A model generated the notes under the pieces. That model was not told where the DNA came from. It did no database searches and saw only the letters and a program-made list of their open reading frames with translations. A DNA stretch of 63,784 nucleotides, the filler included, from Rhabdomonas costata (lineage: Eukaryota), in assembly GCA_019059605.1 (NCBI GenBank). It is 56 parts of 56 records of this genome, joined end to end, with 100 filler letters (N's around TTAATTAATTAA, not from the genome) between each part and the next. Parts side by side here need not be neighbours in the genome. Positions count along the whole stretch, not along the records: positions 1 to 1,040 come from JAHMHO010031849.1; 55 more parts are not named here. The stretch is one strand, 5' to 3'. Position numbers and translations under genes: made by a program. Each line of letters starts with the position of its first letter. Position 1 is the first letter of the stretch. Below are positions 1 to 61,841 of this stretch, one piece after another.

Positions 1-487
1 TACGATGATGCTGATGGCTGCCAGGCTCCACGTCATGCTCTGTGTCCATGGCACCACCACACCCAGCGATGTCAGTTGGAAGGTGGGATGGTCCAGCGGA
101 GCCCAGCATGCAACGTGAAAGGGTGAGTGAGGTACCGATCGTAACCCTGATGTCGTAGAGTGAGGGATGTTGGTGAGTAGAGGCAGAAGGCTGATGACCT
201 GATGCCCGTGAGACCACTACGCAAGATGCCAACCCCTGGTGTGGTGAAGAGTGTCTGCAGTAAGGCCGCTCAGAGGAAGGGAGATGCCAGAGCGTAATCC
301 TGACCTTGATGCCACCTGTTGACCTGTTGAGGGTGAAATCCAGAGGGTGAGACTGACGCGTAGGATGATGCCGGATGAGTGATAAGGCCGCTACGAGTGG
401 AGGAAAGATGCTGAGATGAAGCATGAACCCGTAAAGGCCCCGCAGGGAGGAATGCGTCCCTGAGTTAAAGAGGCCTCCGGCCACGCT

Positions 488-871
488 CTCGCTATGCTCG
501 GTCCACTGCGTGTCCCTCGCTCCGCTCGTAATGTCCAGAAGAGTGAAGAAGAAGAGTCGCATCTTCGCATACGCCCAGCTCCACTCTTACGTCGTCGTGT
601 CATCTCCTACGTCGATGCCACTCCTCCTCTCAAGATGTAAGAGTGAAGATGACGTCGTCGCTTCCCACCTTCCGGTGGTACGCTCCTCCTCTCTCTGTCG
701 TCACTCCGCTACGCTCCGTTCCTCCTCTTTCTGTATGTCGTCGCTTCACTTCGTTACGCTCCTCCTCTTTCATGTCGTCACACTCGCTCCTTGCTACGCA
801 ATGTCGCTCCTGTTCCTCCTTCTTTGTGTCGTCGCTTCGTCACTCACTGCGTTCGTTCCTCGCTCCTCTTT
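488..871 (-). repeat. Array of at least 7 structure-conserved GA-zipper hairpins (G-GA-G-GA-[variable stem-loop]-GA-C-GA-C)
   Basis: Units at about 828-871, 774-821, 737-770, 697-730, 654-692 and 591-631 share GAGGA...GACGAC flanks on the minus strand; 488-528 has the same internal grammar. Interiors differ in sequence but fold with Watson-Crick pairs alternating with GA/GA steps and GNA (one GGAA) loops. Confidence 0.85.
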
Positions 872-1040
872 CTGTTGATCACTTGCCATAGTTCCCTCCA
901 CCACCATAAGTTGGTTACGGTCACTGGTTCACATTCGTCCTGAACTGTTCTAGCTTCTTCCCCCATGGGCAGGCTTCACGGAAAAGTGGGTGGAATGTGG
1001 ACATGCAGATCCCTGAGCTTGTCCTCGACACCCCCCACCC

Positions 1041-3034: not shown

Positions 3035-3139
3035 GCGCCAGTCAGTCCCCAGTGGTCACCACCAACCAGTCAACCAGTCCACCAGGCAACCGCCAGCGCG
3101 CAATGCGCCCAACACACACACACACACACACACACACAC
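3035..3139 (+). repeat. Dispersed short repeat ending in (CA)n, copy 1
   Basis: About 75 nt matches 42022-42114 (agtggtcacca...ccaggcaac.gccagcgcgcaatgcgcccaacacac). Confidence 0.85.
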
Positions 3140-4565: not shown

Positions 4566-4750
4566 TGCACGTGTTTCGTGGGATTCCAAAAAAAGATTTT
4601 GCAGGGGGTTAGAGGTCGGTATTCGTTTTCCGTGGAATTCCAGCAAAAGATTTTGCAGGGTGCACGTGTAACGTGGATTCCAATAAAAGCTTTTGCAGGG
4701 GGTTTGTGGGCGATGCACGTATTCCGCGGGATTCCAATGGAAGATTTTGC
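4566..4750. repeat. Degenerate minisatellite, 4 units of about 40-55 nt
   Basis: Recurring gattcca...aagattttgcaggg and tgcacgt cores. Confidence 0.8.
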
Positions 4751-19285: not shown

Positions 19286-19869
19286 CCCACCCACCCNNNN
19301 NNNNNNNNNNNNNNNNNNNNNNNNNNNNNNNNNNNNNNNNTTAATTAATTAANNNNNNNNNNNNNNNNNNNNNNNNNNNNNNNNNNNNNNNNNNNNTTTT
19401 TGGGGGGATTTCCTTCTCCTGTTCCCTTAGGTGTTGTCGCTGCACCCCGAAAACACCTAAGGGAACAGGAGAAGGAAATCCCTCCAAAAATTATTGAAAT
19501 TTCCAACAGCTCCTCCGACAAGTGGGTACATCCGAACAACGCTGCAGAGCAGTCCGAGACCAAAGTCTGCAGGTACAAAATCTGTCGAAGGAAAAAGCGG
19601 CAGGGCATGCATGCCAAAGTAACCGACCACTAATCGACAAAAGCCTTTGACAGCAGCAAGCTCGTCAAAAAATATCTGTTACCAGTAATACAGAAAAAAA
19701 CGAACATTTCCTTCATCTAAAGGAAAAGATAGCAGAGAAGAAAAAATCGCAACCCGGCTGCAGGGGCAACCCGGAGCAGAAATTTGAGGACGAAAGAGAT
19801 ATGTGCAAAACCGACAAACAGTACTGAAATGCCAAAAAAAGCCCATCGACATATGGCAAGGGTACGTGC

Positions 19870-20163
19870 CTTGGTACAGTCTGGGCTGAACTGCACGGAC
19901 CAAACGCAACCCTCGTGTAGTATCCGGAGCACCTCTCGCCCCACGGACCAGTCCCAGACTCTGGCGGTGCAGTCACGAGAGCCTGTCACTGCCCGTGGGC
20001 CATACCCTATGCTGAGGTCTACCGAGGTCACAGGGCCTTCATGGCCCACCAGCAACGCCGCAGCTGTCTTACCCATCAAAGGCCATACCCGAGCATTGCC
20101 ATCCAAAGACGCCGTGGCAACGTGGAGAGGCCCCTTCGCAGGGGAGAAAGCCACACCGCTCAC
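19870..20163 (-). CDS. WD40-repeat protein exon
   Basis: cag|VSGVAFSP...TASLDGNARVW...GHEGPVTSV...TGSRDCTARVWD...HEGCVWSVQFSPDCTK; canonical WD40 repeats. Confidence 0.9.
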
Positions 20164-20754
20164 CTGCGCGGGGATCGGCAAAAGGTGTAGAACAAGCATC
20201 ACAGCAAACCTTCAAAAAGCCTTCAAAAAAAGGCTCGAAAGCAAGAGAAAGAAGGCTCCCGAACTGAACACCGAGGGCCGAGTAGAGTTGCCCGTTAGCA
20301 TTTTCACCCCGGAACCTCCTGCCTGCTCTGCGCTCTTGTCTTTCCCTCTTCATTCCCTCAAGCTTCACATCAGAGAGAGAGAGAGCGTCACGATCGTGTT
20401 GCTAGGCCACGGTGCCCACCTCAAAACCTGCAAACCCNNNNNNNNNNNNNNNNNNNNNNNNNNNNNNNNNNNNNNNNNNNNTTAATTAATTAANNNNNNN
20501 NNNNNNNNNNNNNNNNNNNNNNNNNNNNNNNNNNNNNGGTGTGTTGTCGTCGCATCCTCCTTGGGATAGGGACGACGGCTCGAAACTCGAAACACGGTGC
20601 CTGCTGAGAGAAATGGGGCGGACACCTGGTCCACCCTTGCTTGCCATTCTGATATACTTTTCAGAATATAAGACAATGGTCGGAAAACAGTCTGAGGGGG
20701 TGGTAAAGCCTGAGTAGTGGTGTGACGTATTTTTTTTGGGCGGGGGCTCTTCAG

Positions 20755-21293: not shown

Positions 21294-23322
21294 GTGGCCC
21301 GAGAACACCCTCCCCGTTCTCTCCACCCGTCACCCGCCGCATGCAAACACGCCACACCCGAGCGTCCAAATCACCCCGCCACCACCACAGCCATGATCGC
21401 CACCTCTATTCAACATTATTCGTTCAATATCCTCCCAACCCACCCAGCAATCCCTCACATCCGTGCGAAACATTTCGCTGATTGCGGGCAGGTCTTCTGT
21501 GCGCAACCATTCCTGATTGCATAGTTAAAAAGCAACCGTAACAAAAAAGTGGTCAAATTCATACCCACACTCACAACCNNNNNNNNNNNNNNNNNNNNNN
21601 NNNNNNNNNNNNNNNNNNNNNNTTAATTAATTAANNNNNNNNNNNNNNNNNNNNNNNNNNNNNNNNNNNNNNNNNNNNGTTGGTTTGTGAAAATGCAGGC
21701 GGCGTCAGCGGCATTTTGGTGCGAGTGTGTAATGGTGATTGTTATTCCCAGCTAAAACGTGTGCGCAAGGCGCCAGATTCTGTGCAGTAGACGAATGAAT
21801 ACATGGCGGACGCGCAGACACTCAGTGTGGAGTGATATGCGGGATTGTAGTCCATGATGACTTAATCAGGCACAAGTGACTGAACTTACGCAGTACAGCT
21901 TTTCGTATACAATCAAAGACACCATACGGATCGTCTTGGTGTTGGATTTTGACACAGATCGGCGCCACAACGGAGGTCAGCATCAGAGAGTGCTAGCTTG
22001 TTGCAATGCGGATGAGATATGGATCGGTGGTGAGTCAACAAATATTGGCGGTAGGGAAAGTGGGTTGAGGAGATGTAAACAATGCCGGATTTTGCATGAG
22101 GACAAATCAATTGAGCAATGGAGGCCAAAGGTAAACTATACAGTAGCGTTCAGAAGATGGGCGGTAGAGCCATCGACCGCCGCCTCCGGAACCTTTTCGA
22201 AGGCTGTGCCCCGGGAAAAACCGGGAGAGACGAAGCATCAGGCAAACGGCAGCCGCAGATGACGCGAACCAAGCAATGTGACCTACCATTCCACCCGGCC
22301 AGTGGGATGCGGCGGCCAGGGCCTCAGGGCAAAATGCCAAAAAGTTCTAACATGACGGGAAAGGAACCCGGCACCCGAGGCAGGAGGCAGTCACCAGAAA
22401 GGTCCCACCAAAAATGCGGTCACCTTTTTTCACGAATACGTGGATTTCCTGGGATTTCCAGCAGGTCAAGCAGGCCGATGCGCAAAAAGCGCCAAAAAAA
22501 ACCAGGGTGGTCGAAAAATGCCGGGTTACAAGCGGATTATGCCTTGTCCTGTTTGTAAAAGCGTTTCTACCAGATGATGCCCGAACTAATGCCCTTTTGT
22601 GCTTCTGTGCTTCCGATATGCCCCTTTTTTCTTCGTCCATAGTTCGTCCAAAGCCGTTGTCGAACCCCGCCGCGCAGAATTACGAACGTGACCTACGCAG
22701 CGGGGTTCGACAACCACAANNNNNNNNNNNNNNNNNNNNNNNNNNNNNNNNNNNNNNNNNNNNTTAATTAATTAANNNNNNNNNNNNNNNNNNNNNNNNN
22801 NNNNNNNNNNNNNNNNNNNTGGGGTGCGCAACAGCACAAGGGAAACATCGGTGGGGTCTGACAAGACGTTGAGCAGATCGGGGGCAGAGGGTGGAGGGTG
22901 AGAGCTGAAAAGCTTCTGTTGCGAGATGCCGAGCTTTGCCGAGCGCAGGTTTTTTTTATGAGATGTGGGTTCTCCATCTTCGCGAGGTCCGAATTTCCTG
23001 AAACCGAACAAGTCTTCCTCTCCCAGTAATAAGCTTTTTTCCTGTTCTGTACCTTTTGCAGGGGCCTTGTGCCTGCCAGCCAAGCGCCATATTTCTGCGA
23101 TGGATGGGTGAAAATCCTTACTTCCTCACCAAACACTGAACGACAGGGGTGTTTTTTTCGAATTTCCACATATGTGAAAACAAGAAGCAAAGGGAACTTA
23201 AGCGTCTTAAGCACAGAAGTCTTGCACACGCCAGGTCGGGTTGTGTCCCCAGCCCACACACAAGCACAGTATAGAGTCAAGTCACCCCGTTCTCCTTCCC
23301 CTTCTCCGGAATTGGCAACTAC

Positions 23323-23430
23323 CTGATCGATGAACGCCGATCGAGCCACCGCCATATCCACCAGTACTTTCTGCTTCAGCTCCCATACATTGCGAAAGAG
23401 CTCCTTGGTTGCGGCAGTCAACGAGCCCAG
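23323..23430 (-). CDS. RRM1: Ribonucleotide reductase class I large subunit exon
   Basis: cag|LGSLTAATKELFRNVWELKQKVLVDMAVARSAFIDQ|gtagtt; KxLYKTVWE..QK...MA..R.AFIDQ motif. Confidence 0.9.
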
Positions 23431-42021: not shown

Positions 42022-42114
42022 GCGCCCGTCATTCCAGAGTGGTCACCAACAACCAAGCCACCAGTCAACCAGGCAACAGCCAGCGCGCAATGCGCCCAAC
42101 ACACACACACACAC
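42022..42114 (+). repeat. Dispersed short repeat ending in (CA)n, copy 2
   Basis: Matches 3035-3139. Confidence 0.85.
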
Positions 42115-60619: not shown

Positions 60620-61841
60620 CAATTGCAATGGAATGGGAGTGTGCCCTAATTTTTGCGGCTATTGCCCCTTTTACGGCTTTCCCGTTTCGGTCAGGCTGGT
60701 ATTAGAAAGCCTGTGGCAGACAATGTATGAAGGTGCCCACTTGAGGCACTCAGAGGGTCGTCAAGTTCAGCGGAGGTGGGAGTGCGACAGAACATACTCA
60801 GCCCACCCACAAGAACACATTACGTCCGCATCTGTTATATGATAAACAGGAGGGGGAAAGAGACCATCCCCCTCGCTCGGGGGTAGATAGCCTCTCGGAA
60901 AGACACTCTGCCGTTTAGAAAAACTAATCTAATCTTCGACATCCTTGTCGTGTTCTTGGGGACATTTGAGCTTCGATTACATTATCGATTACATTACGAA
61001 AACTACGTGTCGATTGCTAGTTCAGTTCAAAAACTGGCTCAATTGTTTGCCGGGCCTCCACCCCTCTTTGCAATACCCTTTGTCGTGTAATTGGGGGAGG
61101 GGGAGAGCACCTCCTGCATGTGCAGACTGCGGGCGACCAGCTGTGACGATAGAGGTGAGGAAGCGTAAAGCTGACGGAAATGGCGATAGTTTGGCCGGCA
61201 TACGTTCAGCAGTGAACCTTTTTCTAGGGGACACGTGCATCGCATCCTAACCCCTTGCGAGATCAATTATCTTGTCCTAGGGGACACGGTCATCGCCTGC
61301 GAGATCAAATATAAAAAGATTCACTGGAAATGCCCATCGCGAATGTGCTCCACAGTCGTGAGCCCATCAGTAGGCCAAAAGAACGAACTGCTTCAAAAGA
61401 AAGCTTAGAGCCCTCCGAGGGACTAAGGCGGCAGTTCTGGTCAGTACACACAAAGTCATCACTTCCCTTCCCCACACACCCGCACACCCGCAAGACCAAC
61501 CACANNNNNNNNNNNNNNNNNNNNNNNNNNNNNNNNNNNNNNNNNNNNTTAATTAATTAANNNNNNNNNNNNNNNNNNNNNNNNNNNNNNNNNNNNNNNN
61601 NNNNGTTGTGGGGGGTCAATCTCCTCCATTAATGGACAAATCACGAACAGAACAGAGCCTCTTGAACAACCAGAAATCAAGCCACCTCATTAGGTGGGCC
61701 GAATGTTTGCATGCTGAAGTCTGCGCTTCCGAGGCCCTTAGCTCGCCCTCGCTATGCGCCCTTTGCCGCATCAGAAGCGAAGCGACTATGCCGTTCTCTC
61801 TGTTTAGGTGTTTGCGAGTGGTGATTGGGTGTGCGTCATAG

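Follow-up and report, generated by a model that had tools for sequence, protein, structure and literature searches.

The minus strand of a short tandem array at positions 488-871 of a 63,784-nucleotide stretch of Rhabdomonas costata DNA (GCA_019059605.1; hereafter the window) parses, far beyond chance, into seven hairpins that mix Watson-Crick pairs with tandem G.A appositions, and comparison of the units suggests that they share a fold rather than a sequence, through compensatory changes and symmetric insertions. The window (1-63784) comprises 56 contigs of 1035-1043 bp placed end to end, and the whole array lies within the first of them (contig 1, 1040 bp, window 1-1040); the evidence base is therefore one locus on one 1040-bp contig, plus controls. 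Our preferred but tentative reading, to which we give somewhat less than an even chance, is that the array is a constrained, cis-acting set of single-strand structural modules, a short, old and diverged tandem array in non-coding DNA. Under this reading, opening of the duplex would allow the purine-rich (minus) strand of each unit to fold into a hairpin whose stem alternates single or short Watson-Crick steps with tandem 5'-GA/5'-GA (sheared G.A) and GNA/GNA steps, and whose loop is either C-GNA-G (a triloop) or C-GGAA-G (a tetraloop), whereas the pyrimidine strand could form only a few Watson-Crick pairs. The modules may, for example, be bound by a protein that recognises a hairpin or a purine-rich single strand or, alternatively, act as blocks that hold an unwound state during replication or transcription.

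Hairpin parses on the purine-rich strand

The array consists of seven degenerate tandem units of 34-48 nt each (U1 to U7; Table 1), spaced 38-61 nt apart. An initial annotation of the window had listed one parse per unit on the minus strand, and we recovered all seven where it had placed them. In each parse, Watson-Crick steps alternate with 5'-GA/5'-GA and GNA/GNA steps around an apex that is C-GNA-G in six units and C-GGAA-G in the seventh. The outer flanks G-GA-G-GA and GA-C-GA-C are common to five of the seven. Linkers between most units are purine-rich and 5-11 nt long, and two longer spacers hold pyrimidine islands (minus strand). Tandem Repeats Finder (TRF) detects only the core of the array (679-799, period 40, 3.1 copies, 70% matches). 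With this period, and with seven units recognized by a covariance model, the array is a minisatellite in form (head-to-tail, unit of about 10-100 bp), although column identity among the units is only 47%, low for a homogenised array.

To quantify the pattern we used a strict parser that extends outward from a GNA or GNNA loop and accepts Watson-Crick pairs, GA/GA and GNA/GNA steps only, with no bulges. Three units are perfect under these rules (737-765, 697-725 and 654-689), and the array as a whole yields five non-overlapping parses of at least 25 nt, the longest being 36 nt. Shuffles of the 401-nt region (1,000 preserving dinucleotides and 1,000 preserving exact trinucleotide counts) gave a mean of 0.001 and a maximum of one such parse, with 0/1000 reaching the observed value in either set; their longest parses were 28 nt (dinucleotide) and 25 nt (trinucleotide). 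The initial annotation had named equally long parses in shuffled sequence as the outcome that would speak against it, and no such parses arose.

The pattern is confined to one strand and one contig. The plus strand of the array contains no strict parse of at least 25 nt, and the other 55 contigs contain none of at least 20 nt on either strand, though some of their stretches share the purine bias. Public sequence collections were scanned with a loose two-unit pattern (GAGGAGGA..GACGAC..GAGGAGGA), which returned at least 120 viral, at least 119 metagenome and at least 120 genome stretches. Across 359 public loci selected in this way for the flank motifs (2.54 Mb, both strands) there were six isolated strict parses of at least 24 nt, some of them simple-sequence runs (such as GAATA, GAA or GA repeats), and no locus had more than one. 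Judging by their codons, the loci found with the loose pattern look like acidic coding runs, and none of those listed showed zipper hairpins; for the metagenome and genome contig scans the pattern was too loose, and the matches listed were unrelated.

The parses also depend on the specific G.A step. When AG/AG, GG/GG or AA/AA replaced GA/GA, or when only Watson-Crick pairs were allowed, parses did not exceed 14 nt. In the minimum free energy (MFE) structure of the minus strand computed with RNA parameters, 13 of 14 2x2 internal loops are GA/GA, whereas 100 shuffles averaged 1.18 such loops and never had more than 5. The CGNAG motif occurs 11 times, versus 4.6 and 5.4 in the two shuffle sets, of which 0/1000 and 3/1000 reach 11. 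By its strict parses, MFE loops and rule swap, the array has the predicted stem of the CGAG-block or G.A-zipper class, in which G:C pairs alternate with tandem GA/GA on one purine-rich strand. That it is a product of chance or of assembly in purine-rich sequence is hardly credible: the contig is short and unplaced, and GA/GA appositions come cheaply because GA outnumbers every other dinucleotide (70 of them in 401 nt, with AG at 56), but none of the controls, whether shuffled sequence, swapped rules or natural sequence, recreated the pattern.

Compensatory change between units

Covariation is stronger evidence than the excess of parses, since here the units are compared with each other. Over 29 nt, U3 and U4 can be aligned gap-free, and the seven substitutions between them all leave the fold intact: two Watson-Crick pairs have changed on both sides (one from G-C to A-T, the other from A-T to G-C), and the remaining three changes fall on the two N positions of the GNA/GNA step and on the N of the loop. 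When seven substitutions were placed at random, a perfect parse survived in 8/200000 cases, or 13/200000 when weighted by composition. Relative to U3, U5 carries insertions on both sides that are complementary to each other.

Across all units, a model-fitted seven-unit alignment contains six Watson-Crick pairs, which are formed in 41/41 cells. In five of these pairs both partners have changed (10 cells), a result that 0/500 shuffles equalled; none of the six shows a one-sided change, and G-T/G-U cells number 0/41. Sliding the partner by 1-3 columns reduced pairing to 8-65% of cells. In a half-swap test, the cognate 5' and 3' halves paired better than chimeras, with only 2/5040 assignments (the true one included) as good under RNA parameters and 43/5040 under DNA parameters; the signal comes mainly from U2, U5, U6 and U7, whereas U3 and U4 are interchangeable with others. 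The U3/U4 changes, the paired cells and the chimera test together bear out the initial annotation's statement that Watson-Crick segments co-vary while GA/GA and GNA/GNA persist. It had also proposed a covariance model that allows G.A pairs. Built from U3 and U4 only, with G.A appositions entered as pairs, such a model ranked the seven units as the top seven matches of the 63.8-kb window on both strands, the five non-training units scoring 19.2 to 12.5 bits and the best unrelated match 12.3 bits.

That the units share a fold and not a sequence points to a constraint on the foldability of the purine strand. Classical GC-rich minisatellites have units of tens of bases, degenerate variants and a strong purine/pyrimidine asymmetry, and the array shares with them its unit length, degeneracy and strand asymmetry. 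Hairpin-forming repeats are, moreover, prone to expansion. A symmetric founder unit, proposed to have had GGA-type and GAC-type triplet flanks and a CGAG-like cryptic simplicity, might have been propagated without function, with slippage or templated correction in transient hairpins keeping the arms matched. We consider this neutral origin unlikely. The outer flanks of the five units that share them would be held in common by descent, and parts of U1 and U7 are of CGAG-like low complexity, which can pair with itself in several registers (PMC10085684, in the part of that report available). Against this, roughly twenty GA/GA or GNA/GNA steps persist while Watson-Crick steps are swapped by double changes, all units keep the fold despite their low column identity, and the unit-specific stems are true inverted repeats, beyond what periodicity can produce. 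The retention of GA/GA steps, which have not been converted to Watson-Crick pairs, argues against hairpin-templated correction in particular. We know of no minisatellite whose units keep an internal dyad by compensatory changes. Compensatory changes and symmetric insertions fit a constrained structural element better than an ordinary homogenised satellite, in line with the initial annotation, which proposed a selected structural element.

Table 1. Features of the hairpin array and of the contig that carries it (window coordinates).
Feature	Position	Strand	Description
Whole array	488-871	-	76-78% purine on the minus strand across 651-900
U1	828-871	-	hairpin 866 to 831 with a GCA loop on a C-G pair; stem with four to five GA/GA steps, one being GA/GAA; RNA MFE equals the parse; strict core 861-837, 25 nt; covariance model 18.1 bits
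U2	774-821	-	hairpin 819 to 774; 4-bp stem topped by an exact GCGTAGC mini-hairpin; a bulged A and one G/G apposition; covariance model 14.3 bits
U3	737-770	-	perfect 29-nt parse 765 to 737, loop GAA
U4	697-730	-	perfect 29-nt parse 725 to 697, apex an exact GCGTAGC mini-hairpin
U5	654-692	-	perfect 36-nt parse 689 to 654, 5-bp Watson-Crick apex, GGAA loop; best cognate half pairing under both RNA and DNA parameters
U6	591-631	-	hairpin 627 to 591, loop GTA, unit-specific 3-bp and 4-bp Watson-Crick segments; a single G/A apposition
U7	488-528	-	most diverged unit, with other flanks (CGAG-like blocks), loop GCA; a GGA/ATA step; strict core 520-496, 25 nt
Watson-Crick inverted repeat	576-651		arms 576-593 and 634-651, 83% complementary; encloses U6 and lengthens its stem; present in the RNA MFE
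Small hairpin adjoining U7	472-482	-	4-bp GGCC stem, GGA triloop, read directly from the sequence
Left flank	1-487	+	non-coding, moderately purine-rich on the plus strand, no G.A-zipper hairpins
Right flank	872-1040		unique sequence, no feature recognised

DNA strand or transcript

Energy-based folding separates the two strands of the array. With RNA parameters, which include tandem-GA terms, ViennaRNA recovered the annotated parse in six of seven units, and the minus strand was more stable than its shuffles (z -2.95, 0/100 as stable) while the plus strand was not (z +0.44). Together with strict parses on the minus strand only, this agrees with the strand specificity claimed in the initial annotation. 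The same annotation expected standard tools to miss the hairpins, which held for DNA parameters and for an inverted-repeat finder, whose output does not list the unit hairpins, but not for RNA parameters.

Because RNA parameters both recover the parse and give this z score, a transcript of the purine strand is a serious alternative, albeit a somewhat unlikely one: the strand would be transcribed as part of a spacer, untranslated region, intron or long non-coding RNA, and its hairpins would act as protein-binding or processing modules. The RNA-parameter score is the only significant stability signal we obtained, tandem G.A loops are common RNA motifs, and the covariation fits RNA as well as DNA. 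Conversely, Rfam 15 gave no match at gathering score in the window (the best E-value on contig 1 being 1.9), six of seven units have GNA triloops where RNA would usually have tetraloops, G-U is absent from the 41 paired cells and the energies of U3 and U4 are marginal. GNA triloops are characteristic of stable mini-hairpins in DNA, not of hairpins in RNA. The exact GCGNAGC 7-mer is present in two of the seven units (U2 and U4), and in the other five only the inner C-GNA-G or C-GGAA-G is kept, the second pair being another one. From these apices, the CGNAG enrichment, the lack of G-T/G-U cells and the small RNA energies we slightly favour the DNA strand over a transcript, and only slightly because the general prior favours RNA.

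The hairpin chemistry itself is already known. According to the available part of PMC10085684, nuclear magnetic resonance has resolved the CGAG blocks of a human AUTS2 promoter repeat, in which G:C and sheared G:A pairs follow one another and the loops are GNA or GNNA, and DNA hairpins of this type melt well above physiological temperature. The array resembles the AUTS2 hairpins as described there in the predicted folding of one purine-rich strand, in its stem of G:C and tandem sheared G:A pairs and in its GNA/GNNA tip, and U7 and U1 carry literal CGAG/GAGC blocks as in that element. However, the AUTS2 element is portrayed (PMC10085684, same part) as one locus with a simple 4-nt repeat that flanks a binding site and slides between registers, whereas the array has seven complex 34-48-nt units whose register is fixed by unit-specific Watson-Crick segments, and additionally has GNA/GNA steps and compensatory change between units.

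Mini-hairpin DNA of the type GCGNAGC/GCGNNAGC is reviewed in PMC13037366, the accessible part of which places such hairpins at the phage G4 origin, plasmid RSF1010 ssiA and the single-strand promoters of phage N4, and states that their stability escapes current prediction parameters. All seven apices of the array are of the corresponding C-GNA-G or C-GNNA-G form, with exact GCGTAGC in U2 and U4. The reviewed cases, as far as that part of the source goes, are single isolated hairpins in phage and plasmid single-strand signals (PMC13037366); in the array, by contrast, the loops cap longer G.A-zipper stems that stand in tandem on a eukaryote-like contig without replicon context.

Folding by sheared G.A pairs is also a property of some satellites. 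In the Drosophila dodeca-satellite, the purine-rich strand folds back with such pairs. Human satellite III ATGGA strands do likewise, according to the portion of PMC11014236 available, and the array shares with satellite III a tandem arrangement in which, by prediction for the array, the purine-rich strand alone folds back with sheared G.A. Units of satellite III (PMC11014236, same portion) and of the dodeca-satellite are short (5-12 nt) and homogeneous and pair between repeats, whereas each long, diverged unit of the array forms its own predicted hairpin, and only seven units are present on the DNA at hand. A search of freely available full texts, main text only, returned no natural array in which every one of a set of long, diverged units retains a hairpin of this type by compensatory change. 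The initial annotation's remark that this is not a described element therefore needs dividing: the G.A/GNA hairpin chemistry is described (PMC10085684 and PMC13037366, in their available parts), and an array with compensatory evolution appears undescribed.

Several observations weigh against a constrained set of DNA hairpins. Conserved structure in cellular genomes is usually RNA, and with DNA parameters the array is no more stable than its shuffles (z -0.36 on the minus and -0.15 on the plus strand) and unit energies are small. Even with RNA parameters, U3 and U4 reach just -3.1 and -4.0 kcal/mol, and the MFE of U4 is a partly different fold from the annotated one. The strict parser took its rules from the initial annotation's description, four of the seven units (U1, U2, U6 and U7) need one or two irregularities, and the five long parses are not five independent events because the units are paralogues. 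In the covariance model U7 sits at background (12.5 versus 12.3 bits), and public loci preselected for the flank motifs reach 17.5 bits, which indicates that the model mostly recognises the flanks and is not specific. Furthermore, the seven-unit alignment was fitted to a structure model, and the units whose covariation was measured are paralogues within a single array, with no orthologues among them. A neutral origin keeps some weight for the same reason, as every comparison was made within one array. The data show the parses, their excess over chance, their strand specificity and the covariation inside the array; that the hairpins form at all, that selection rather than a mutational process maintains them, the preference for DNA and any function are what we infer.

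Setting of the array and possible significance

The contigs of the window are separated by N44 + TTAATTAATTAA + N44, in which TTAATTAATTAA is a 12-base six-frame stop linker; these spacers are artificial, so sequence across a spacer is not genomic context. G+C in the window contigs is close to 52%, the ratio of observed to expected CpG is about 0.8, recognisable domains are few and no tRNA or Rfam genes were found, so that the source has the look of a fragmented eukaryotic assembly. No relative of contig 1 occurs among the other 55.

Contig 1 offers no sign of coding sequence. As a coding repeat the array was rejected: its longest minus-strand frame is 69 aa and the unit spacings are not multiples of three, and its plus-strand frames are open because that strand is poor in purines. 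No Pfam match was found in five contig 1 reading frames, and a 195-aa frame over the left flank has no relatives among 1.84 billion representative proteins. The C/D-box snoRNA matches at 120-215 are weak, far below threshold.

Both flanks are unremarkable in their count of GA/GA loops; the MFE of the left flank has one, and 37/100 shuffles do as well. We likewise rejected the idea that the left flank derives from the array by inversion and divergence, since its best similarity of 18.3 bits equals the median of 200 shuffles. A periodicity of about 122 bp in 1-487 aligns weakly (43% column identity). GATGCC occurs on the plus strand of contig 1 at 201, 225, 283, 308, 367 and 614, four times as GATGCCA, against about 0.25 copies expected per strand per 1 kb, and the copy at 614 lies inside the U6 stem.

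Near U6 and U7 there are further local features. Two purine islands on the plus strand, 539-552 and 639-652 (AAGAGTGAAGA type, 93% alike), break the pyrimidine-rich array, and because they are complementary to 579-589, U6 stands on a longer Watson-Crick stem. Motifs of the CACTCTTA type (582-589; inverted at 638-645) may resemble the subterminal transposase-binding repeats of CACTA elements, as a lead only; no terminal repeats are evident. Beyond U7, a further small hairpin at 443-462 has a 6-bp stem and an 8-nt loop.

A quite different possibility, very unlikely on present evidence, is that the array belongs to a replicon (organellar, viral, extrachromosomal or co-amplified), where it would act as a single-strand replication origin, a priming site or a processing signal, or that it is a mobile hairpin. 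The same loop type is used at the initiation sites of phage G4 and RSF1010 (ssiA) and at the N4 promoters, as reported in the accessible part of PMC13037366, and the dinucleotide signature of the contig 1 flanks is the second most deviant of the 56 (0.187 versus a median of 0.08), a value that is noisy because only 656 nt of repeat-rich flank were used. The G+C content of contig 1, however, is within the range of the other contigs (rank 4/56), and the 1040-bp contig has no Rep, HUH or reverse-transcriptase domain in the five frames searched with Pfam or in the relative search with its longest frame. Contig 1 had no blastn match in plasmid and phage collections, and stricter patterns in viral contigs gave one match and none, the single one (locus L360) fitting only the flank motifs in the covariance model. 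In the known cases there are one or two hairpins rather than a tandem series of seven.

Elsewhere in the window, the clearest coding exon seen is an open frame with a WD40 repeat at 19720-20211 on the minus strand (Pfam PF00400, E 7.4e-14). A short stretch at 22768-23475 on the minus strand resembles part of the large subunit of ribonucleotide reductase, namely its barrel domain (PF02867), but weakly (E 7e-4, which does not reach the cut-off of the family); these are the only Pfam matches among 15 frames scanned outside contig 1. Two copies of a 94-bp tandem repeat (79% matches) occupy 4566-4750, at the start of the fifth contig. A 93-bp stretch with 89% identity is found in two contigs, at 3035-3127 and 42022-42114, and is probably a dispersed repeat; its copy at 3035-3127 overlaps a CAACCAGT repeat and an (AC)19 microsatellite. 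A 62-bp stretch, also with 89% identity, recurs in opposite orientation in two other contigs, at 34229-34290 and 61196-61257.

The constrained hairpin array that we favour would bear on a wider question. Sheared-G.A non-B DNA is well characterised in vitro, and there is little evidence that it is relevant in cells. For RNA structures, function is conventionally proved by covariation, and we know of no case in which this has been applied to DNA motifs of this kind. The stronger proposal, that a cellular genome keeps by natural selection a DNA hairpin array written in a non-Watson-Crick code, in which G.A and GNA steps are fixed and Watson-Crick steps evolve compensatorily, is doubtful on the present evidence. 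If true, it would be the first comparative (covariation) evidence for sheared-G.A DNA hairpins as functional units in vivo, and it would imply that a protein which binds hairpins or purine strands reads the single-stranded form, with initiators, primases, nucleases and recombinases as examples. Should the pattern fail in further copies or orthologues, the array would be a curious minisatellite; should the compensatory changes hold there, the locus would provide a search pattern for more such elements and a short, easily synthesised test system with seven natural variants of one fold.

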